DNA of 64,000 nucleotides from an uncultured Actinomycetota bacterium (GCA_963784645.1 CAWARY010000005.1:178656-242655), one strand, 5' to 3'; positions 6,877 to 44,240 are shown, numbered from the stretch's first letter. The notes: generated from the letters alone by a model not told the origin. A program made the numbers and translations.

Positions 6877-6980
6877 GCCGCCCGCGCCCCTGCCGTGACC
6901 GGCCGGGGTCAGAGCGCTTCGGACAGGGGCCTGCTCGCCTGCCGGGCCGTCCGCCGTCGCCCAGGGGCACCCCGGTTTCC

Positions 6981-7033
6981 ATGATCCACAGGGGATCTGT
7001 TGGATATTTCCCAACGGATCCGCTGTGGATCAT
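6981..7033. repeat. Family-1 palindromic intergenic element, full copy (arms ATGATCCACAGGGGATCTGTTGG / CCAACGGATCCGCTGTGGATCAT, loop ATATTTC)
   Basis: Inverted repeat with 23-bp arms and 2 mismatches. Related copies occur at 44161-44217 and, truncated, at 32644-32688. Confidence 0.6.
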
Positions 7034-7091
7034 GAACTGGCGGGTGCATCAGGAGGGTTCCGGCGCTCTGACCTGGGACGAAGTGGTTCCG

Positions 7092-7138
7092 GTTCACTCG
7101 AGTCACACAAGTCACAGGCGTCACAGCGTGGCGTCAAG
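7092..7138. promoter_or_regulatory. Array of 4-5 (G)TCACA half-sites at about 10-bp phasing, upstream of the STAS gene
   Basis: GTTCAC-N4-GTCACA-N3-GTCACA-N3-GTCACA-N7-GTCAAG, read directly in the 368-bp intergenic region. Confidence 0.3.
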
Positions 7139-7244: not shown

Positions 7245-7562
7245 ATGGCTGTCGTCGTCGCAACGGAGCGCGAGATCGTGCTGTCCGGCCGGCTGGACGT
7301 GAGCAGCGCGGCCGATGTCCGCGCGGCACTGCACGAGGCCATCGACCTGGGGGCCGGCGACCTGGTGGTCGACCTGGCCGGGGTCGACTGGGTCGACGCC
7401 ACCGGGCTCGGTGTCCTGCTGGGTGCCGACCGCCGGGCCAAGCAGCTCGGCCGCCGGTTCGTCCTGCGCGATGCCGCCCCGCGCGTCCGCCGGATCCTGC
7501 GGGTCACCCGGCTGCACCGGGTCCTGACCCTGGACCAGGCTGCCGCGTCCGTCGCCGTCTGA
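7245..7562 (+). CDS. STAS-domain anti-sigma factor antagonist
   Basis: About 105 aa, MAVVVATEREIVLSGRLDVSSAADVRAALHEAIDLGAGDLVVDLAGVDWVDATGLGVLL, a SpoIIAA-like fold. Confidence 0.75.
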   Translation: MAVVVATEREIVLSGRLDVSSAADVRAALHEAIDLGAGDLVVDLAGVDWVDATGLGVLLGADRRAKQLGRRFVLRDAAPRVRRILRVTRLHRVLTLDQAAASVAV

Positions 7563-7612
7563 CCGGCCCGCGGACCAGCCGGTCCCGGGGGCCGGCAGCA
7601 GCGTAGTTACCG

Positions 7613-9667
7613 GTGAGTAGGATCCGTGCCGTGCGGGACCAGCCGTGGGTCATGCGGACGTACGCCGGGCACTCCTCGGCGGCGGAGTCGAACGCGCTGT
7701 ACCGGCGCAACCTCGGCAAGGGCCAGACCGGCCTCTCGGTGGCCTTCGACCTGCCGACCCAGACCGGCTACGACCCCGACCACGAGCTGTCCCGCGGTGA
7801 GGTCGGCAAGGTCGGGGTGCCGGTCAGCCACCTCGGCGATGTGCGCGCACTCTTCGACGGGATCCCCCTGACGGGGATGAACACGTCGATGACGATCAAC
7901 GCGACGGCGATGTGGCTGTTCGCGCTGTACGAGACGGTGGCGCTGGAGCAGGCGGGCATCGGACCCGACGGCTCGGGGGGCGGGGTGGACGGGGCGGCCG
8001 CGGCCGAGGTGCGCGGCCGGCTCGCGGGTACGACGCAGAACGACATCGTCAAGGAGTACCTCTCGCGCGGCACCTACGCGTTCCCCCCGGCGGCGTCGAT
8101 GCGGCTCACGACCGACCTCATCGCCCACACCGTCACCGAGGTGCCGAAGTTCAACCCGATCAACATCTGCAGCTACCACCTCCAGGAGGCCGGTGCGACG
8201 CCGGTACAGGAGATCGCGTTCGCGATGTCGACGGCGGTGGCCGTGCTCGACGCGGTGCGCGACGCCGGCCAGGTACCCCCGGAGCGGTTCGGCGATGTGG
8301 TGGCCCGGATCTCGTTCTTCGTCAACGCCGGCGTCCGGTTCGTCGAGGAGATGTGCAAGCTGCGCGCCCTGGTGCAGCTGTGGGACGAGACCACGCGCGA
8401 CCGGTACGGCGTCACCGACCCGAAGAACCGGCGGCTGCGCTACGGCGTGCAGGTCAACTCGCTCGGGCTCACCGAGGCGCAGCCTGAGAACAACGTGCAG
8501 CGGATCGTCCTGGAGATGCTCGCGGTAACCCTGTCCAAGGACGCCCGGGCGCGCGCGGTCCAGCTGCCGGCGTGGAACGAGGCGCTCGGCCTGCCGCGGC
8601 CGTGGGACCAGCAGTGGTCGCTGCGCATCCAGCAAGTGCTCGCCTACGAGTCCGACCTGCTCGAGCACGAGGACCTGTTCGCCGGCTCGCACGTGGTCGA
8701 GGCGAGGGTCGGTGAGATCGTGACGGCCGCACGCGCCGAGATGGCGACGATCGCGGACATGGGCGGCGCCGTCGCGGCGGTCGAGAACGGCTACCTCAAG
8801 TCCGAGCTGGTCTCGTCCCACGCCCGTCGACGGGCCCGCGTCGAGTCCGGCGAGGACGTCGTCGTGGGGGTCAACCGGTTCACCGAGACCGAGCCCAGCC
8901 CGCTCACCGCTGACCTCGACACCGCGATCCAGACCGTCGACAAGGACGTCGAGGAGCGCGCAGTCGCCGCCGTGCGAGCCTGGCGGGAAGGACGCGACGC
9001 CGGGGCCGTCGAGGCCGCGCTGGCGAGCCTGCGCGACGCCGCGACAGGCACCGGCAACCTCGTCCCGGCGTCACTGGCCTGCGCCCGTGCGGGCGTCACC
9101 ACGGGGGAGTGGGCCGGTGTGCTGCGGGAGGTCTTCGGTTCCTACCGCGCGGCGACCGGTGTCGCCGGAGCGGTCGGCATCAGCAGCCTGGTCGGCACGG
9201 CCGGCGACGACCTGCGGGCCGTGCGCGAGCTGGTGGCCCGCACCAACGGCGAGCTCGGTACCCGGCTGCGGCTCCTGGTCGGCAAGCCCGGCCTCGACGG
9301 CCACTCCAACGGTGCGGAGCAGATCGCCGTACGCGCCCGCGACGCCGGCCTCGAGGTCGTCTACCAGGGCATCCGGTTGACCCCGGGCGAGATCGCCGCG
9401 GCCGCCGTCGAGGAGGGCGTCCATGTCGTCGGGCTGTCGATCCTGTCGGGGTCGCACCGGGAGCTGGTGCCGGAGGTGCTGCAGCTGCTGCGCGACGCGG
9501 GGGCGGGCGAGCTGCCGGTCGTGGTCGGCGGGATCATCCCCGAGTCCGATGCCCGGTGGTTGCGCGAGCAGGGCGTGGCCGGCGTCTTCACGCCCAAGGA
9601 CTACGGCATCACCGAGATCATCGGCCGTATCGTCGAGCTCGTCCGCACCGCACACGACCTCGACTGA
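7613..9667 (+). CDS. Coenzyme B12-dependent acyl-CoA mutase, with catalytic and B12-binding domains fused (MeaA/Ecm-like ethylmalonyl-CoA or methylmalonyl-CoA mutase family)
   Basis: 684 aa. The N-terminal mutase barrel (MRTYAGHSSAAESNALYRRNLGKGQTGLSVAFDLPT) is followed by a C-terminal B12 domain carrying a DxHxxG motif (GLDGHSNGAE). Confidence 0.8.
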   Translation: MSRIRAVRDQPWVMRTYAGHSSAAESNALYRRNLGKGQTGLSVAFDLPTQTGYDPDHELSRGEVGKVGVPVSHLGDVRALFDGIPLTGMNTSMTINATAMWLFALYETVALEQAGIGPDGSGGGVDGAAAAEVRGRLAGTTQNDIVKEYLSRGTYAFPPAASMRLTTDLIAHTVTEVPKFNPINICSYHLQEAGATPVQEIAFAMSTAVAVLDAVRDAGQVPPERFGDVVARISFFVNAGVRFVEEMCKLRALVQLWDETTRDRYGVTDPKNRRLRYGVQVNSLGLTEAQPENNVQRIVLEMLAVTLSKDARARAVQLPAWNEALGLPRPWDQQWSLRIQQVLAYESDLLEHEDLFAGSHVVEARVGEIVTAARAEMATIADMGGAVAAVENGYLKSELVSSHARRRARVESGEDVVVGVNRFTETEPSPLTADLDTAIQTVDKDVEERAVAAVRAWREGRDAGAVEAALASLRDAATGTGNLVPASLACARAGVTTGEWAGVLREVFGSYRAATGVAGAVGISSLVGTAGDDLRAVRELVARTNGELGTRLRLLVGKPGLDGHSNGAEQIAVRARDAGLEVVYQGIRLTPGEIAAAAVEEGVHVVGLSILSGSHRELVPEVLQLLRDAGAGELPVVVGGIIPESDARWLREQGVAGVFTPKDYGITEIIGRIVELVRTAHDLD

Positions 9668-15724: not shown

Positions 15725-16111
15725 CTAGCCGACCGGCGGGGCCGCCTCGTCAGCGGCGAGCATGTCCTCCAGCTCGAGGAGCCGCAGCAGCCGCAGCACG
15801 CTGCGCCGGCAGTGCCGCAGCTCGACGCTCCCGGAGCGCTTGGCGAGCATCGCCCGGGCGAGCAGCAGCGGCGAGATCCCCGAGGCGTCGGCGAAGCCCA
15901 CGCCGCTCATGTCGACCACCAGGCGGGTGCACAGGGGTGCGCGCCGGGCCGCGAGCGCCTGGTCGACGACGGCCTGCAGCAGCGGCGAACTGGTGATGTC
16001 GAGCTCGCCGTCCAGGCGGACGGTCACCGTGGCCCCCTCCGGCCGGACGTCGACGGCAAGCGTCGACTGAGCGCTGCGCAAGCCCCGTGCTCCCTCTCCC
16101 ACGACGGCCAC
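15725..16111 (-). CDS. STAS-domain anti-sigma factor antagonist (start uncertain, GTG)
   Basis: The C-terminal 110 aa, [56 protein letters not shown], are SpoIIAA-like. The upstream ORF extension is GC noise. Confidence 0.55.
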
Positions 16112-16218
16112 CCCGTCGGGACCGTCTGGCACGGCCGCGCGCGGGCGACCGTGCGACCTGTCTACCCCATCGGACCCCTGGCATGCCCGGCGCCGCAGGA
16201 CCTGGGAGGATCGACCGC

Positions 16219-17994
16219 ATGTCACGTGACTTCCGCACCGTGGGCGTCGTGGGTCTGGGCACCATGGGTGCCGGGATCGTCGAGGTGTTCGCCCGCGAGG
16301 GGCTGCAGGTCGTGGGCGTCGAGCCCACCGAGGAGGCCCTCGAGCGCGGCCGCGGCCACCTGCGCAACTCCACCGACCGCGCGGTCAGCCGGGGAAAGCT
16401 CACCGAGGCCGACCGGGACGCCCTCGTGGCCCGGGTCACGTTCACGACGTCGATGGAGGACCTCGCCGACGTCGACCTCCTCGTCGAGGCGGTGCCCGAG
16501 CGGCTGGACCTCAAGCAGGAGGTCTTCGCGGCCGCGGACAAGATCTGCCGGCCCGACACCGTGCTCGCCACCAACACCTCCTCGCTGTCGGTCACCGAGA
16601 TCTCGGTGGCCACCTCGCGGCCGTCGCAGGTCGTCGGCATGCACTGGTTCAACCCGGCGCCGGTCCTCAAGCTGGTCGAGGTGGTACGCACCGTCGTGAC
16701 CGAGCAGGAGGTCGTCGACGACGTCACCGCGCTGGCCGAGCGGCTCGGGAAGAAGCCGGTCGTCATCGGTGACAAGGCGGGGTTCATCGCCAACGCCCTG
16801 CTGTTCGGCTACCTCAACCACGCGGTGTCGATGCTCGAGTCGCGCTATGCGACCCGCGAGGACATCGACGCAGCGATGCGGCTGGGCTGCGGCTACCCGA
16901 TGGGTCCGCTGGCCCTGTTGGACCTGATCGGTCTCGACACGGCGTACGAGATCCTCGACACGATGTACCGGCAGTCGCGCGACCGGCTGCACGCGCCGGC
17001 GCCGATCCTCAAGCAGATGGTCACGGCCGGTCTCCGGGGTCGCAAGACCGGGCGCGGCTTCTACACCTACGAAGGCCCCGACTCGCCCAAGGTCGTCGAC
17101 GACGCCCTGACACCGGGTGCGGGCGGCGCACACCAGGCCGGTCGCGACGTCCGGCGCATCGGCGTCGTCGGCTCGGGCACGATGGCCACCGGCATCGTCG
17201 AGGTGCTCGCCAAGGCGGGCTACGACGTGCTGTACGTCGCGCGCGGTGCCGAGAAGGTCGCCCGGGTGCGCGCCGACCTCGAGCGGTCGCTGGACAAGGC
17301 CGTGCTGCGCGGCAAGCTCGAGCAGGCCGATCGCGACGCCGCCGTGTCACGGGTCACCGGGTCGGCGCGGCTCGACGACCTCGCCGACCGCGACCTCGTC
17401 GTCGAGGCGGTCGTCGAGGAGCTGTCGGTCAAGCAGGCGCTGTTCTCTACCCTCGACGAGATCTGCCGGCCCGGCACCGTCCTCGCGACCACGACCTCGT
17501 CGCTGCCGGTGGTCGAGCTGGCCGCCGCCACCGGCCGGCCGGCCGACGTCGTCGGCCTGCACTTCTTCAACCCCGCGCCGGTGATGAAGCTGGTCGAGGT
17601 CGTGAGCACGGTGTCGACCGCGGACGACGTCGTCGCCACCGTCCGGCAGGTCTGCGAGCGGGCCGGCAAGCACGCCGTCGAGTGCGGCGACCGGGCCGGG
17701 TTCATCGTCAACGCGCTGCTGTTCCCCTACCTCAACGACGCCGTGAAGATGCTCCAGGCGCACTACGCGAGCGTCGAGGACATCGACGCCGCGATGATCG
17801 TCGGCTGCGGCTACCCCCTTGGTCCGTTCGACCTGCTCGACGTCGTCGGCCTCGACGTCGCGTACGCCATCCAGCGCACGCTCTACCTCGAGTTCCGCGA
17901 ACCGGGGTTCGCGCCGGCGCCGCTGCTCGAGCAGCTCGTCACCGCCGGCTACCTCGGTCGCAAGGCCGGCCGCGGGTTCCGCGACTACCGCTGA
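16219..17994 (+). CDS. Tandem-duplicated 3-hydroxyacyl-CoA dehydrogenase (two complete HBD modules fused)
   Basis: 591 aa carrying two NAD-binding motifs (VGVVGLGTMGAGIVEV and IGVVGSGTMATGIVEV), each followed by an HBD C-terminal domain. Confidence 0.85.
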   Translation: MSRDFRTVGVVGLGTMGAGIVEVFAREGLQVVGVEPTEEALERGRGHLRNSTDRAVSRGKLTEADRDALVARVTFTTSMEDLADVDLLVEAVPERLDLKQEVFAAADKICRPDTVLATNTSSLSVTEISVATSRPSQVVGMHWFNPAPVLKLVEVVRTVVTEQEVVDDVTALAERLGKKPVVIGDKAGFIANALLFGYLNHAVSMLESRYATREDIDAAMRLGCGYPMGPLALLDLIGLDTAYEILDTMYRQSRDRLHAPAPILKQMVTAGLRGRKTGRGFYTYEGPDSPKVVDDALTPGAGGAHQAGRDVRRIGVVGSGTMATGIVEVLAKAGYDVLYVARGAEKVARVRADLERSLDKAVLRGKLEQADRDAAVSRVTGSARLDDLADRDLVVEAVVEELSVKQALFSTLDEICRPGTVLATTTSSLPVVELAAATGRPADVVGLHFFNPAPVMKLVEVVSTVSTADDVVATVRQVCERAGKHAVECGDRAGFIVNALLFPYLNDAVKMLQAHYASVEDIDAAMIVGCGYPLGPFDLLDVVGLDVAYAIQRTLYLEFREPGFAPAPLLEQLVTAGYLGRKAGRGFRDYR

Positions 17995-29242: not shown

Positions 29243-30448
29243 ATGGTGCCGAGGGTCCTGACCAACAGGCCACCCTTCTGGCCGAGGTTCACCAGCCCGG
29301 TCCGGTCGACGGCGGTGACCGCCCGGCTCGGCCGGGTGCTCGGGATCATGTTCGGGATCTGCTTCGTCACCGGCCTGGCCAGCCACTACCAGTACCACCC
29401 GTGGAGCTGGCTGCCCGAGCCGGCGAGCCCGGTGTGGCTCTACCGGGTGACGCAGGGAACTCACGTCGTGACCGGGATCGCGTGCATCCCGCTGCTCCTC
29501 GTGAAGCTCTGGTCGGTCTATCCGAACCTGTTCCGCTGGCCGGCCGTGCGGTCGGCCGCACAGGCGATCGAACGACTCTCGGTCTTCGTGCTCGTCTCGT
29601 CGTCGCTGCTCCAGCTGTTCACCGGGTTCTTCAACATCCTCGGCTGGTACCCGTGGCCGTGGCACTTCGTCCGGGTGCACCACTACCTGGCGTACGTGGT
29701 GATCGGCTCGATCCTGCTGCACATCGCCGTGAAGCTCCCCGACATCGCCTACGGTCTCCGCACCCGCGTCGCCGACGGCGACGTCCTCACGGAGACACCG
29801 TGGAGCGAGAACCCGGACTCGCACAGCAACGCCGGCGCCGACGTGCTGCCGCCGCCACCGGAGGCCATCAGCCGCCGCGACCTCCTGCTGGTCACCGGCG
29901 CCGGTGTGGGCCTGGTGGTCGTCACCACCGCGGGACAGACACTGACACCGCTGCGTCCCCTGGGACTGCTCGCGGCCCGGGACCCGGGCAAGGGCACGCA
30001 GGGGCTGCCGGTCAACCGCACCGCGCTGCAGGCCGGCGTGGTCCAGACCGCCCGGGACCCCGACTGGACCCTCGAGGTCCAGGGCGACCGGCCCTACCGG
30101 ATCGACCTGGCCGAGCTCGAGTCGCTCGTCGACCACGAGGCCAGCCTGCCCATCTCCTGCGTCGAGGGCTGGAGCGCCGCTGCACACTGGCGCGGTGTGC
30201 GGCTGCTCGACCTCGTGCTCCGGGCCGGCGGGAGCTCCGCGTCGCGGGTCCGCCTCCTGTCGTTGCAGACCCGCGGCGCCTTCGGGAGCAGCGCCATCGA
30301 GGGGCCGCAGGTGGCACACGCCCTGCTGGCGACGCATCTCAACGGGCAGCGGATCGACATCGACCACGGCTACCCGCTGCGGCTGATCGCGCCCAACCGG
30401 GCCGGGGTGCTCAACACGAAGTGGCTGACGAAGATCGTGGTGAGCTGA
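29243..30448 (+). CDS. Molybdopterin-dependent oxidoreductase (sulfite-oxidase / MsrP-like catalytic domain) with an N-terminal 4-TM domain
   Basis: About 400 aa. An N-terminal membrane domain with conserved His is followed by a C-terminal Moco-binding domain (...SCVEGWSAAAHWRGVRL...). Confidence 0.7.
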   Translation: MVPRVLTNRPPFWPRFTSPVRSTAVTARLGRVLGIMFGICFVTGLASHYQYHPWSWLPEPASPVWLYRVTQGTHVVTGIACIPLLLVKLWSVYPNLFRWPAVRSAAQAIERLSVFVLVSSSLLQLFTGFFNILGWYPWPWHFVRVHHYLAYVVIGSILLHIAVKLPDIAYGLRTRVADGDVLTETPWSENPDSHSNAGADVLPPPPEAISRRDLLLVTGAGVGLVVVTTAGQTLTPLRPLGLLAARDPGKGTQGLPVNRTALQAGVVQTARDPDWTLEVQGDRPYRIDLAELESLVDHEASLPISCVEGWSAAAHWRGVRLLDLVLRAGGSSASRVRLLSLQTRGAFGSSAIEGPQVAHALLATHLNGQRIDIDHGYPLRLIAPNRAGVLNTKWLTKIVVS

Positions 30449-30449
30449 C

Positions 30450-30893
30450 GTGCGACGGTGGCGCCGCGTGCTGGGCGGCGCGGGCGTCCTGCTGCTCGGG
30501 TACGGCGGTCTGCAGCTGGTGACCGGCAACTCGACGGCCGACCTGCTGTCCATCGCGCTCTGGCTGGTTGCCGCGGTGGCGATCCACGACGGGCTGGTCT
30601 CGCCCACCGTCCTCGGGGCCGGCGCGATCTTGCGCCGCGTGCCTGCCGGGCCGCGCCGGTTCGCCCAGGCCGGGCTGGTCGTGGGGGCGATGCTCGTCGT
30701 GATCGCCGTCCCGCTGATCCACCGCGAGGGCACCCAGCCGGAGAGCAAGGCGCTGCTGCTGCGCGACTACGGCGCGAACCTCGCCGTGCTGCTGGCGTTG
30801 GTCGCGGTGGTCAGCGTGGTCGCCTACGTCGTGCACGTCGTCCGCGCGCGCGGCGATCGCCGCGGCACGGTGTCCGACCCGACCCGGGGCTAG
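30450..30893 (+). CDS. Small integral membrane protein (4 TM)
   Basis: 147 aa, hydrophobic. Its GTG start lies 2 nt after the preceding stop. Confidence 0.45.
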   Translation: MRRWRRVLGGAGVLLLGYGGLQLVTGNSTADLLSIALWLVAAVAIHDGLVSPTVLGAGAILRRVPAGPRRFAQAGLVVGAMLVVIAVPLIHREGTQPESKALLLRDYGANLAVLLALVAVVSVVAYVVHVVRARGDRRGTVSDPTRG

Positions 30894-30986
30894 CGTCCGC
30901 AGTACCTCCGGTGCGTGGGTCCCGCGCCTGCTGGCCGCAGACGTCGGGGATCTCCCGGCTCCGTGGCCGGGGTAGCGTCGCTCGGC

Positions 30987-31772
30987 ATGACCGTCGCGCT
31001 GCACGTCCGGGAGGCCGGCTCCGGCCGCCCCGTCGTCCTGCTGCACGCCTTCCCGCTGTCCTCGGCGATGTGGCTCGACCAGCGGAACGCGCTCGGGGAC
31101 CGCTACCGCGTCATCACCCCGGACCAGCGCGGCTTCGGCGGCTCGCCGCTGGGCGACGACCCCCCGTCGCTCGACGAGGCCGCCGACGACCTGGCCGCGG
31201 TGCTCGACGGGCTGGGTCTTGACCGGGTGGTTCTCGGCGGCCTGTCGATGGGCGCCTACGCAGCGATGGCGTTCCTGCGCCGGCACCCCGGCCGGGTGAG
31301 CGCCCTGGTGCTGGCCGACACCAAGGCGGGTGCCGACGCGCCGGAGGCCGCCGCCAACCGGGAGCGCATCGCGGCCCGGCTGGAGGCCGACGGCAGCACC
31401 GACGCGCTCGTCGAGGACGTGCTGCCGGCACTCCTCGGCGCCACGACGGTGCGCGAGCGACCGCTCGCTGCGGGACGGGTGCGGGCCCTGCTGTCGTCGG
31501 CTCCGCCCGCGGCGGCCGCGTGGGCGCAGCGGGCCATGGCCGCACGCCCGGACTCCATGCCCACGCTGCGCGAGGCCGACGTCCCCGCCCTGGTGCTGCG
31601 CGGCGACGAGGACGCGCTGTCGTCGCAGGACGACGCCGAGGCCATGGTCGAGGCGCTGCCGCAGTCCCGGCTGGTCGTGTTGCCCGGAGCCGGGCACCTC
31701 ACCGCGGTCGAGGTGCCCGAGGCGTTCGGCAAGGCGGTCGGCGCGTTCCTTGACGGGCTGCCGGGGGGCTGA
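30987..31772 (+). CDS. Alpha/beta hydrolase
   Basis: Contains HAFPLSSAMW and a GLSMGAY nucleophile elbow. Confidence 0.75.
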   Translation: MTVALHVREAGSGRPVVLLHAFPLSSAMWLDQRNALGDRYRVITPDQRGFGGSPLGDDPPSLDEAADDLAAVLDGLGLDRVVLGGLSMGAYAAMAFLRRHPGRVSALVLADTKAGADAPEAAANRERIAARLEADGSTDALVEDVLPALLGATTVRERPLAAGRVRALLSSAPPAAAAWAQRAMAARPDSMPTLREADVPALVLRGDEDALSSQDDAEAMVEALPQSRLVVLPGAGHLTAVEVPEAFGKAVGAFLDGLPGG

Positions 31773-31789
31773 GTCCGCGGGTCACCGGC

Positions 31790-32548
31790 TCAGGAGTCTG
31801 ACCTCGCCTCGATCGCATCCAGGTCGCGCACGGCGTAGCGGTGGTGCTCCCACTCCTCGCCCAGGATCACGTGCAGGCACGAGAGGACGGTCTCCGGGTA
31901 CTCGGGGGCGTGGGGGTTCCTGCGCGTCTCGGCCAGCACCTCCGGGGTGACGGAGGCGAGGAAGTCGCGCACCATCGCGACGCGACCCTCGCGGACCTCG
32001 AGCACCTCGGCATACGTCGGCGTCTCCGTGGCGAAGACCGACATGTCGCGGCCGTCGGCCTCGAAGCTGGCGTCCGGCTGGCCGATGGGGTGGAACGGCT
32101 GTTCGAGCTCCAGGACGGCCTTGCCCAGCCACATGTCCGTGGCGAGGACCAGGTGTCGCAACGTCTGCGCGAACGACCACTCGCCCCCCACCGAGACGTC
32201 GACCGTGCCGCCCGGCAACGCCGAGACCCGCTCGAGCGTGACCGCCCAGGTGCGCTCGAGCGCGGCCCAGGCGGCGCGCAGGCCGTCCGGGGCCCCGGCG
32301 CGGCGGTCGGCGCGGCCGGGGAAGCGGCGGTTGAGCTCGGCCTCGACGAGGGGGATCACGTCGACGCCGTTGACGCGCAGGAATCCCTCGCCGTCGAAGA
32401 GCCACGGCGCGTCGATGTCCGCCCCCAGCACGTCGACCGCACGCATCTGCACGCCGGACAGGTCTGCTCTGACGAACCGGGCGCCACGCAGGTCGGCGTC
32501 GACGAACTCCGCCCCCTGCAGGTCGTCGGAGCGGGTGAACGTTGCCAT
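31790..32548 (-). CDS. Pentapeptide-repeat plus DinB_2/DUF664-domain protein
   Basis: The N-terminus carries pentapeptide repeats (ADLRGARFVRADLSGVQMRAVDVLGADI). A strong AAGGAG ribosome-binding site precedes the ATG. Confidence 0.65.
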   Translation of the reverse strand: MATFTRSDDLQGAEFVDADLRGARFVRADLSGVQMRAVDVLGADIDAPWLFDGEGFLRVNGVDVIPLVEAELNRRFPGRADRRAGAPDGLRAAWAALERTWAVTLERVSALPGGTVDVSVGGEWSFAQTLRHLVLATDMWLGKAVLELEQPFHPIGQPDASFEADGRDMSVFATETPTYAEVLEVREGRVAMVRDFLASVTPEVLAETRRNPHAPEYPETVLSCLHVILGEEWEHHRYAVRDLDAIEARSDS

Positions 32549-32643
32549 GACTTCTCCTTGTCGAGCGCCGGTCGCCGCTGGCGCACGCTAGCCGTTGGTC
32601 GCGAGCCAGACGTGGATGTCGCCTCGCCCGTCGCATTTCCAGA

Positions 32644-32688
32644 GGAGATCTGTTGGAGAAACTGCTACCGATCCCCTGTGGATCACGG
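32644..32688. repeat. Family-1 palindromic element, truncated copy (lacks the left TGATCCACAG terminus)
   Basis: GGAGATCTGTTGG-AGAAACTGCTA-CCGATCCCCTGTGGATCACGG. It abuts the 80-bp repeat A. Confidence 0.5.
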
Positions 32689-32700
32689 GATGGACGGTCA

Positions 32701-32780
32701 GGGCGGGATCGCCGGGAAACCGTTGTGGACAAAGGGTTTCCACGGGTACGCGTGTGCGCTAGGCTTCGAACATACGTTCG
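32701..32780. repeat. 80-bp direct repeat, copy A (78/80 identical to copy B at 33461-33540)
   Basis: GGGCGGGATCGCCGGGAAACCGTTGTGGACAAAGGGTTTCCACGGGTACG... Similarity to copy B extends back to 32658 (AACTGCT). Confidence 0.7.
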
Positions 32781-32923
32781 CGAGCCTGACTGGGATATTC
32801 GCAACGATCCGGCGCGCGCCCTCCGACGGGCCGTCGATGCCGGGCCGGGCCGGGTGGTCATCGGGTGTGCACTCGTCGTGTGCCAGCTCCCGACGACGCG
32901 CGCCTGGGTAGCGCTCACACGTT

Positions 32924-33308
32924 GATCGTGAAGCCGAGCTCGTAGTCGCTGGCGGCCTCGCCGCCGGCGCCCCAGTTCTCCACAGCACTCTCCCTGAGCA
33001 GAATCGGACACGCCGTCACGCGGGATCCCCATCCCCTCAAGTCGCTGAACGATCTCGCGGTACAGATCGCGCTTTGCCTTGATGGTTCGGCCGGAGAAGC
33101 AGTCGATTGTGACGCGGGTATATGCGTCAGCCGCTCCGTCCTCGAGCCCGCTCACCATGCGGTGCGGCTCGAAGACGGCAAGTCGGATGTAGCGATCCTC
33201 TTCGGGGATCTTGAACGCGGCTACGAGGCTTTCGTGCACCGCGTTGATGATGGCGACTTCTTGCTCCGGCGTGTAGTGCCTGCGAACTTCGATCAGGGTG
33301 CTGGGCAT
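32924..33308 (-). pseudogene. Tautomerase-family (4-OT-like, Pro-1) gene interrupted by a +1 frameshift; low-GC codon usage
   Basis: The N-terminal 99 codons read MPSTLIEVRRHYTPEQEVAIINAVHESL...GIPRDGV. The conserved C-terminus ILLRESAVENWGAGGEAASDYELGFTINV* is in the +1 frame. The span is 385 nt (3n+1). Confidence 0.6.
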
Positions 33309-33460
33309 GTACCAGAGATATCAGGCCCGCACGTCCGTCGATCGGGCAACAGGCGTTCACGACGCGCTTGGCGTGTCTGTCATTTCGGGACCAGGGAAGA
33401 GGCATTGATTCGACGGGTTGTCCGCGATGAGCGCAGTCGCTAACTGCTGCACTCCCGGGC

Positions 33461-33540
33461 GGGCGGGATCGCCGGGAAACCGTTGTGGACAAAGGGTTTC
33501 CACGGGTACGGGTGTGCGCTAGACTTCGAACATACGTTCG
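33461..33540. repeat. 80-bp direct repeat, copy B, forming the leader/promoter region of the DUF222/HNH gene
   Basis: It ends 49 bp upstream of the HNH gene ATG. Confidence 0.7.
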
Positions 33541-33588
33541 AGCGGTCGGAGGTGGGGTGCGTGGAGGCGTCGCTCGCGCCGATGCTCG

Positions 33589-35055
33589 ATGCTGTCGCCG
33601 GACCCTGCCGACCTGCTGGACCCGGTGCTGGCGCCCGATCCGCTGCCCGACGGATGGCTGGACGGGTGCGCCGACCAGGCGCCGGACTTCTTCGTGCCGA
33701 TCGACTCGGTCGCCTGGGACGCGGACGGCGAGGGTGCCGAGGTGGATGGCTGGCCGCCGAGCGACCTGCTGAGCGACCTCGACGACGTGCCTCCGGGTCC
33801 GCTGCTGGCGAGCCTGCTGGCCGCGACCGACCTGGCGGGCTGCTCGGACTCGGACCTGGCGGGTGCGGTGCGTGCCGCGTACCGGTTGCAGTCGTGGGCG
33901 GCGGCGCTGGAGGTCGAGGCGACGAACGTGCTGGTGGACCGGTGCGCGTCCTGGCGCGGGGTGGCGCCTGCCGGGGAGCAGGTGGCGGGGGAGTCGGTGT
34001 CGGCGGAGCTGATGGCCGCGGTCGAGATCGGCTGCGCGCTGGACCTGGCCCCGCAGACCGCCCGCGCCAAGGTGGTGCTGGCCCGGGACCTGGCCCGGCT
34101 GCCCGCGACGCGGCTGGGCCTGGCCGCGGGGGTCCTCGACCTGGCGAAGGCGCGGCTGCTGGTCGACGAGCTGCGGCCCCTGGACGACGAGCTGGCCGCC
34201 GAGGTGGAGGCCCGGATCGTGCCCGGCGCCGCGGGCCGGACCCGGGCGCAGCTGCAGAGCCGGCTGCGGCGGGCGGTGCTCGCGGTCGACCCCGCGGCGG
34301 CGCTGGCCCGGCAGGAGAAAGCCATAGCCGACCGGCGGGTGGAGGTGTTCCCGCTCAGCGACGGGATGGCCGGGCTGACCTACACCGACACCGCGCAGAA
34401 GGTGCACGCCCTGTACCTGTGGCTGACCGGCCGCGCGCACGCCGCGCGAGGCCCGGCCGGGACCGACGACCGTACGATCGACCAGGTCCGGGCTGACGTG
34501 CTCGGTGACCTCGGGGAGCAGGGGCTGGCGTGCGGGGACCTGCCGGTGCGGCACGGGCGGCGCCCGCAGATCCAGGTCGTCGTGGGGGTCGGGACGCTGC
34601 TCGGGCTGGACGAGCTGCCCGGTGAGCTGGTCGGGTACGGGCCGGTCACCGCCGACACCGCCCGTCGGATCGCCGCCGACGGCACGTGGCGGCGGCTGCT
34701 GAGCGACCCGCGGACCGGCCGGTTCGACGAGCTGTCGGTCGAGAGCTACCAGCCCCCGCAGGACCTGGCCGACCACGTGATCACCCGGGACCGGACCTGC
34801 CGCACCCCCGGCTGCCGCACGGCGGCGCACCGCTGCGACCTGGACCACCGGGTGCCGCACCCGCGGGGCCCGACCTCGGCGGGCAACCTCGACGCGGCCT
34901 GCCGCAGCCACCACACCGTGAAGACCCACACCGACACCACCGTCGAGAGCGACGGTCACGGCGGGCTCCGGTTCACCCTGCCCTCCGGACGCACCTACCG
35001 GCGACCCGCCGACCCCGTCCAGGACGACCTGTTCAGCGACATCCCCCCGTACTGA
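33589..35055 (+). CDS. DUF222 plus HNH endonuclease domain protein (13E12-repeat family)
   Basis: 488 aa. The C-terminal HNH motif is ...TCRTPGCRTAAHRCDLDHRVPHPRGPTSAGNLDAACRSHHTVKTH. Confidence 0.85.
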   Translation: MLSPDPADLLDPVLAPDPLPDGWLDGCADQAPDFFVPIDSVAWDADGEGAEVDGWPPSDLLSDLDDVPPGPLLASLLAATDLAGCSDSDLAGAVRAAYRLQSWAAALEVEATNVLVDRCASWRGVAPAGEQVAGESVSAELMAAVEIGCALDLAPQTARAKVVLARDLARLPATRLGLAAGVLDLAKARLLVDELRPLDDELAAEVEARIVPGAAGRTRAQLQSRLRRAVLAVDPAAALARQEKAIADRRVEVFPLSDGMAGLTYTDTAQKVHALYLWLTGRAHAARGPAGTDDRTIDQVRADVLGDLGEQGLACGDLPVRHGRRPQIQVVVGVGTLLGLDELPGELVGYGPVTADTARRIAADGTWRRLLSDPRTGRFDELSVESYQPPQDLADHVITRDRTCRTPGCRTAAHRCDLDHRVPHPRGPTSAGNLDAACRSHHTVKTHTDTTVESDGHGGLRFTLPSGRTYRRPADPVQDDLFSDIPPY

Positions 35056-44135: not shown

Positions 44136-44160
44136 CGACTCGCGGCCCTGACCCGCCGCC

Positions 44161-44217
44161 CCGTGATCCACAGCGGATCCATGTGGTTTTTCCTCACCAA
44201 TCCGCTGTGGATCACGG
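44161..44217. repeat. Family-1 palindromic intergenic element, full copy
   Basis: CCGTGATCCACAGCGGATCCATGTGG-TTTTTCCTCA-CCAATCCGCTGTGGATCACGG, with 18-bp perfect arms. Confidence 0.6.
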
Positions 44218-44240
44218 AACTGCGGGTGGCCGGGGCCGGC

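Follow-up and report, generated by a model that had tools for sequence, protein, structure and literature searches.

Why does an 80-nt sequence that leads into a gene of the DUF222/HNH (13E12-type) family recur 760 nt upstream, with no such gene behind it? The question is raised by a 64,000-nt stretch of DNA from an uncultured Actinomycetota bacterium (GCA_963784645.1, CAWARY010000005.1:178656-242655; hereafter the window), in which the two copies of this direct repeat, A and B, are identical at 78 of 80 positions. From the elements that can be read in the repeat, and by analogy with Mycobacterium tuberculosis, we hold with good confidence that it is the LexA/SOS transcriptional control module of the DUF222/HNH gene, of which copy A would be an orphan duplicate. 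On the same grounds the repeat reads as a promoter/operator module and not as the terminus of an element.

The two copies differ only at positions 32751/33511 (C in copy A, G in copy B) and 32763/33523 (G and A, respectively), and their similarity ends at the final base of the SOS box. A 27-nt core of the repeat has two matches in the 64 kb where none would be expected by chance, and a profile built from homologous leaders finds just these two copies in the window. An earlier note on this DNA had described a composite repeat of about 100 bp; the 78/80 core of 80 nt stands, but the proposed extension to 100-128 bp depends on one shared 7-mer, AACTGCT, at unequal spacing, which we regard as a chance match. 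A shared match of this type occurred in 14% of shuffles and in 43% of random 60-nt pairs drawn from the window, and only the 80 nt are therefore counted as repeat. The same note correctly placed the end of copy B 49 bp before the ATG of the DUF222/HNH gene (at 33589) and saw no HNH gene downstream of copy A. A similarity search likewise revealed no HNH remnant and no unit 3' end in the spacers 3' of copy A and 5' of copy B.

Both copies contain the same elements in the same order (Table 1), i.e. an upstream box set within an inverted repeat, a -35-like hexamer, a predicted -10 hexamer and, directly 3' of the latter, an SOS box that follows the mycobacterial/actinobacterial consensus TCGAAC(N4)GTTCGA (PMC3381160). 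In M. tuberculosis, six of 25 LexA peaks from chromatin immunoprecipitation sequencing lie at 13E12 genes, the LexA-regulated members being Rv0336, Rv0515, Rv1702c, Rv2100, Rv1588c and Rv0095c, whereas RecA-NDp promoters serve further genes of the 13E12 family (PMC3381160). By analogy, LexA bound to the SOS box, across the transcription start, would block RNA polymerase, and DNA damage would release the promoter via RecA-stimulated LexA cleavage, as has been shown experimentally for the M. tuberculosis 13E12 genes. Copy B would then drive the DUF222/HNH gene via the ribosome-binding site at 33548. Copy A probably still binds LexA as well, and upon derepression would transcribe 134 nt of unique DNA and continue antisense into a tautomerase-family gene. 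Its -10 hexamer, TAGGCT, is found at the same position in the leader of a contig-truncated DUF222 gene in locus L033 (L-numbers denote fetched comparison loci, P-numbers homologous proteins), which suggests that the copy A promoter is probably still active.

Table 1. Features of the repeat locus, with window coordinates counted from the first nucleotide of the stretch.
Feature	Position	Strand	Evidence or remark
Pentapeptide/DinB_2 gene, last gene syntenic with sister genomes	31790-32548	-	synteny ends at ~32562
Decayed family-1 palindrome (P3), adjoins copy A, outside the module	32633-32690	.	8-nt left-arm gap compared with the 6972-7040 copy
Copy A, orphan promoter/operator module (predicted) with all elements, no DUF222 gene 3'	32701-32780	+	nhmmer leader profile, E=3e-19
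Box TTGTGGACAA of copy A; reverse complement contains TTGTCCACA	32723-32732	+	within inverted repeat GGAAACC 32715-32721 / GGTTTCC 32735-32741
Predicted -10 TAGGCT of copy A; -35-like TTTCCA 32737-32742, spacer 17 nt	32760-32765	+	read from sequence
SOS (LexA) box of copy A, TCGAACATACGTTCGc	32766-32781	.	15/16 to TCGAAC-N4-GTTCGA
Unique spacer, copy A to tautomerase stop codon; would be transcribed from copy A	32781-32914	.	resembles neither the HNH unit nor a fetched locus
Tautomerase-family gene (PptA-like), Tautomerase_2/Tautomerase	32915-33308	-	one extra C at 33006-33007; alignment with L115, L116
Unique spacer, tautomerase start to copy B	33309-33460	.	~35 nt by the ATG conserved with tautomerase upstream regions elsewhere
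Copy B, promoter/operator module (predicted) of the DUF222/HNH gene	33461-33540	+	nhmmer leader profile, E=1.1e-20
Box TTGTGGACAA of copy B	33483-33492	+	within inverted repeat GGAAACC 33475-33481 / GGTTTCC 33495-33501
Predicted -10 TAGACT of copy B; -35-like TTTCCA 33497-33502, spacer 17 nt	33520-33525	+	read from sequence
SOS (LexA) box of copy B, TCGAACATACGTTCGA	33526-33541	.	16/16 to TCGAAC-N4-GTTCGA; kept in homologues
Ribosome-binding site GGAGGTG (33548-33554) and probable ancestral GTG start (33561)	33548-33563	+	paralogue N-termini
DUF222/HNH-motif (13E12-type) gene, 488 aa	33589-35055	+	Pfam DUF222, 638 homologues

The module is not peculiar to this genome. In metagenome-assembled genomes (MAGs) of uncultured Actinomycetota (L001-L004, L020, L033) it lies 5' of DUF222 homologues that are 69-76% identical at the protein level, and homologous modules precede DUF222 genes in L035-L050 as well. 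A TAnnnT hexamer followed within 0-2 nt by CGAAC-N4-GTTCG occurs at 29 distinct sites 5' of DUF222 homologues, a layout that reaches metagenome loci down to ~30% protein identity. The suggestion of the earlier note that the 80 bp form a conserved leader of the DUF222/HNH gene is thereby borne out in many genomes. In 13 of the 29 distinct promoters a box TGTG[GC]A.. starts 35-37 nt 5' of the -10 hexamer, against a background for the strict 8-mer TGTG[GC]ACA of one per 17 kb. When box and GGGTTTC flank were combined in a genome-wide pattern scan, nine actinobacterial matches were obtained, seven of them directly 5' of DUF222 genes as judged by tblastn; in the remaining two (L022 and L033) the contig breaks off after no more than a DUF222-like N-terminus. 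Within the window itself the number of SOS-core matches is within chance expectation, and a third exact match to CGAAC-N4-GTTCG (CGAACCGGGGTTCG) at 17898-17911 lies within the coding region 16087-17994.

Among the nine matches are distant subfamilies (L016-L018, L022, L032) with no SOS box in their promoters. In L018 and L022 the upstream box is directly followed by GTCGGTG-N8-TAnnnT in place of the SOS box, and L016, L017 and L032 carry a similar, looser TGTCC(A/G)AC-N8-TAnnnT. To judge from these elements, the five promoters appear to be of the RecA-NDp type, for which Gamulin et al. (2004) reportedly gave the consensus tTGTCRgtg-N8-TAnnnT. Promoters of this kind are known in Actinobacteria as PafBC-dependent DNA-damage promoters (PMC6789036, PMC8223512). 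The window copies differ from them, reading CGGGTACGG or CGGGTACGC 8 nt 5' of the -10 hexamer, and a RecA-NDp element was found by inspection to be absent from both. In L018 (~6930-7000 after orientation), L022, L016, L017 and L032, a CCGTTGTGGACAAAGGGTTTC motif was also observed, followed by the RecA-NDp-like promoters and by apparently leaderless ATG starts.

The resemblance to the REP13E12 family of M. tuberculosis thus comprises several DUF222 paralogues per genome, a TCGAAC-N4-GTTCGA box at the promoter and the use of RecA-NDp promoters by some relatives; the M. tuberculosis paralogues are in addition recombination substrates (PMC13157036). Conversely, the host here is an uncultured Sporichthyaceae-like actinomycete, the comparison of the leader covers the SOS box, the Pfam HNH model has no match at the C-terminus of the window protein, and no connection with a phage attachment site was observed.

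Several observations weigh against reading the repeat as a LexA-controlled promoter with an orphan duplicate. A strict sigma-70 consensus scan calls no promoter at either copy, the hexamers were assigned by eye, and the -35 element (TTTCCA) is weak; weak -35 elements are usual in high-GC actinobacteria. With regard to the origin of copy A, the contigs of both sister genomes considered below end within ~220 nt of the break in synteny. Finally, the frameshifts in the tautomerase gene and in the DUF222/HNH gene could both be sequencing errors, and the term pseudogene is for this reason not certain.

The assignment of the gene behind copy B is based on Pfam PF02720 (DUF222), which scores 71.2 bits against a gathering cut-off of 24.4 (E=1.2e-19). 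The Pfam HNH model gave no match on the protein even at E<=10, and NCBIfam likewise gave none; the C-terminal HNH motif was recognized by eye and is invariant in the alignment, CRTPGC...CDLDHRVP...GPT...NL...CRSHH..K (CxxxxC...DH...N...HH). In the AlphaFold2 model (mean predicted local distance difference test score, pLDDT, 63.6) residues 365-440, the HNH part, are poor. A Foldseek comparison of the model with the PDB returned nothing at E<=0.001, and a PDB sequence profile produced chance talin matches only. The paralogues P0242 and P0056 begin MEASLA(S/P)MVVLSPDP, and the window in that frame reads VEASLAPMLDAVAGP. In the paralogues translation begins at a GTG that corresponds to 33561. Owing to a 1-nt insertion relative to these paralogues, located between 33561 and 33589, this GTG is in the window out of frame with the main open reading frame (ORF), which therefore restarts at the downstream ATG without an obvious ribosome-binding site. 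From this comparison the ancestral start of the window gene appears to have been lost.

The extent of the unit to which the module belongs was delimited by pairwise blastn between copies in different genomic contexts, including two paralogues of one MAG (L001 and L003). Homology runs from the upstream box (~33469-33480) to the stop codon at 35055, with nothing beyond. The source genome holds at least five DUF222 paralogues (P0001, P0241, P0242, the frameshifted P0056 and P0019), whose origin in one genome we infer; P0001, P0241, P0242 and P0056 share a 90% cluster or 96% identity. With so many paralogues at hand, ectopic recombination or partial deletion is a likely origin of copy A. Most likely it arose by ectopic recombination, or by partial deletion/insertion, among the at least five near-identical DUF222 units; in M. 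tuberculosis, 13E12 repeats are known to recombine with one another (PMC13157036). The data are compatible with two events, either of which may have produced the present arrangement: a Campbell-type insertion of a circle that bore a leader plus the tautomerase segment, or the deletion of an HNH gene that once lay upstream. The earlier note had considered a solo leader remnant or a recombination mediated by the repeat: copy A is indeed solo and recombination is plausible given the paralogues, but the nature of the repeat as an SOS promoter had been missed. An orphan promoter would be a fairly ordinary outcome for a multi-copy family such as DUF222.

If copy A is still active, it could have been exapted as an SOS-controlled promoter for a damage-inducible small RNA, or for an antisense RNA to the tautomerase gene. 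We consider this unlikely. All promoter elements and 15 of the 16 SOS-box positions are intact, with two substitutions only, and LexA sites linked to small RNAs have been reported in M. tuberculosis (PMC3381160). Still, a divergence of 2.5% is equally expected of a recent neutral duplicate, and the 134-nt segment downstream of copy A has no excess folding (z +0.5), no terminator that could be found, and no homologue in the fetched loci. A profile search, moreover, detected a solo leader at no other fetched locus. The preferred interpretation of copy A remains that of an orphan duplicate.

The upstream box deserves separate treatment, as the conserved, fixed-position YTGTGSACAR motif is the only modestly new item at this locus. 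The family consensus is near-palindromic with a conserved GGGTTTC flank, and its centre would lie at about -45 if transcription starts ~7 nt after the -10 hexamer. To our knowledge, a fixed upstream box of this kind has not been described for M. tuberculosis. Closer relatives read TTGTGGACAA or TTGTGCACAA; among more distant ones the perfect palindrome CTGTGCACAG is found in L035, L036 and L050, and TTGTGCACAG in L044. The minus strand of both window boxes contains TTGTCCACA, the high-affinity DnaA box of M. tuberculosis and Streptomyces coelicolor (PMC4285127), and these are the sole two perfect matches in the 64 kb. The 9-mer is also perfect in L016-L018, L020, L022 and L033 and has one mismatch in L001-L004. 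Unlike a DnaA box, the motif becomes symmetric in distant homologues and occurs singly, without clustering except in L016 and L032, where three TGTGGA boxes were observed in a row upstream. The perfect palindrome suggests a dimeric DNA-binding protein, and the symmetry of the box would fit a dimeric regulator better than an asymmetric DnaA box.

Could it be the DUF222/HNH protein itself that recognizes the box, be it for autoregulation or to carry out self-directed cleavage and gene conversion? The box accompanies DUF222 genes with SOS-type and with RecA-NDp-type promoters alike, but we regard the proposal as quite unlikely. If it were true, a selfish unit induced by DNA damage would have the 80-bp module as its cis-acting end, and copy A would be a trace left by the turnover of such units. 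In a second version of the proposal, the motif could act as a DnaA-box input that couples DUF222 genes to replication status. In five species of Amycolatopsis (L006, L012, L025, L030, L031) a conserved 20-mer, CGTTGTGGTCAAAGGGTTTC, was additionally noted ~50 nt 5' of a ~130-aa, Cys-rich ORF, adjoining a DasR-box-like sequence. This is the sole non-DUF222 intergenic occurrence seen; it probably matched by chance, orthology accounting for its recurrence.

A different view of the locus was suggested by the palindrome next to copy A. Family-1 palindromes, as they were called in the earlier note, are 60-70-nt near-perfect hairpins with compensatory arm differences, and lie in intergenic DNA just after gene ends. 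The two intact ones in the window, at 6972-7040 and 44155-44222, fold far better than shuffles (z -8.9 and -7.9); one follows a 3-hydroxyacyl-CoA dehydrogenase gene, 5' of a probable STAS-type ORF recognized by eye, and the other follows meaB. Together with the leader they could be taken to mark a mobile 13E12-type element, the leader being its terminus, the palindrome a terminus or target, and copy A what remains of a lost second element. The module always travels with its gene, unit homology begins at the box, and the DUF222 family is multi-copy. Furthermore, copy A starts 10 nt past what is left of the palindrome, at a point to which similarity with the sister genomes no longer extends. Despite these points we find the idea of a mobile element very unlikely. 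None of the 114 related loci (480 kb), among them ~30 DUF222 upstream regions, contains the family-1 motif; the leader recurs at the DUF222 genes of relatives, the palindrome does not. Copy B has no palindrome, and the intact copies lie far from DUF222 genes, beside genes of acyl-CoA metabolism or of the STAS type. Likewise, blastn revealed no terminal inverted repeat, conserved 3' non-coding end or target duplication in the compared units, the gene occupies a syntenic site in two species (L002, L004), and no relative of the family was found in IMG/VR viral contigs or, by tblastn, in plasmids.

The sister genomes L117 (GCA_038246545.1, labelled Sporichthyaceae) and L118 (GCA_039930885.1) bear directly on this issue. 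They are 92-94% identical to the window over 30003-32562, and homology ends at ~32562, 14 nt 5' of the DinB_2 start codon. In each of them a separate decayed family-1 copy lies 5' of DinB_2, with no leader in the following 130-216 nt of sequence (L117 1-218, L118 1-132), and in L117 a different gene stands next to the decayed copy (MDTTLDSMATKKK...). The palindrome therefore belongs to the DinB_2 upstream region, and we infer that it lies next to copy A by coincidence. The block that starts with copy A sits at the synteny break. Among the loci fetched previously, tblastn of six neighbouring window proteins gave only weak (~32%) abhydrolase paralogue matches, in L060 and L074, and those loci are thus not syntenic. 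These results do not support the physical tie between palindrome and HNH element that had been proposed earlier. A family-1 motif adjoining copy A is real (32668-32688), but it is part of a decayed full copy (32633-32690) rather than a right arm kept by the repeat, and there is no evidence for its deletion from copy B.

As to their own nature, family-1 palindromes resemble repetitive extragenic palindromic (REP) sequences/bacterial interspersed mosaic elements (BIMEs), or U-tail-less hairpin terminators, in being intergenic and present in several copies per genome. Each arm contains TGATCCACA, a Caulobacter-type DnaA box with one mismatch from the Escherichia coli sequence TTATCCACA, and a mini-palindrome GATCC-N5-GGATC, by virtue of which an operator function may be possible. 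Near the first intact copy, at 7100-7130, GTCACA occurs three times in direct orientation (AGTCACACAAGTCACAGGCGTCACAGCG), a pattern reminiscent of the MtrA motif GTCACAGCG. Some 120 nt further 3' is an unlisted ORF of ~105 aa (7246-7563), in appearance a STAS-domain anti-sigma-factor antagonist, which precedes a methylmalonyl-CoA-mutase-like gene (7613-9667).

The 680 nt between the copies have a GC content of 0.60-0.65, compared with 0.73 for the window, and carry the tautomerase gene on the minus strand with a 1-nt insertion; a lower GC content and a frameshifted tautomerase had been described in the earlier note. That this segment is a foreign insert was not borne out, as the tautomerase gene has ~63% GC also in other hosts of 70-71% GC; low GC is therefore a property of the gene and no sign of recent import, and was ruled out as a mark of foreign DNA. 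Its nearest homologues, mostly from Micrococcales-type genomes, are intact proteins of 130 aa with 82-86% identity, and the neighbours of the gene in L115 and L116 are unrelated to DUF222. The extra C falls in a CC run, and the frameshift reflects either a pseudogene or a sequencing error.

This last point raises the concern that the frameshifts, or the two-copy arrangement as such, are assembly or sequencing artefacts of a metagenome-assembled genome. The sequence, part of a 766-kb contig, apparently derives from a MAG-type assembly, and related short-read MAG contigs break exactly at these repeats. However, a mis-join at an 80-bp repeat would leave one copy and not two around 680 nt of unique sequence, and each of the variants at the two positions where the copies differ is present in homologues. 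We therefore judge an artefact to be highly improbable.

The remaining explanation, in which the GGAAACC...GGTTTCC arms form a structured RNA leader or DNA hairpin acting in cis as a riboregulator, terminator or recombination hairpin, is scarcely credible: a 39-nt segment does fold better than shuffles (z -2.5 with RNA and DNA parameters), but the whole 80 nt do not (z -0.7 and -1.4), the inverted repeat is 5' of the -10 hexamer and thus outside the predicted transcript, none of seven pairs is changed on both sides among 10 distinct homologous motifs, whose pairing is no better than that of shuffles, the left arm drifts (GAATCC, GCATCC, GGAAGCC) and so breaks its pairing with a constant GGGTTTC right arm (column 10 is unpaired in 6 of 10), and Rfam, searched at the gathering score and at E<=1, returned chance matches only (a viral frameshift element and a microRNA hairpin). 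The absence of compensatory change and of an Rfam family, together with the position 5' of the -10 hexamer, indicates that a sequence motif and not a structure is conserved.

The two copies thus reveal no new kind of element. Rather, the comparison indicates that the SOS-box control described for DUF222/13E12-type genes of M. tuberculosis has a conserved counterpart across uncultured Actinomycetota, where an undescribed promoter-proximal box is a candidate site for an extra regulator. The orphan copy A would illustrate on a small scale how multi-copy 13E12-type units disperse LexA-controlled promoters and give rise to points of rearrangement.

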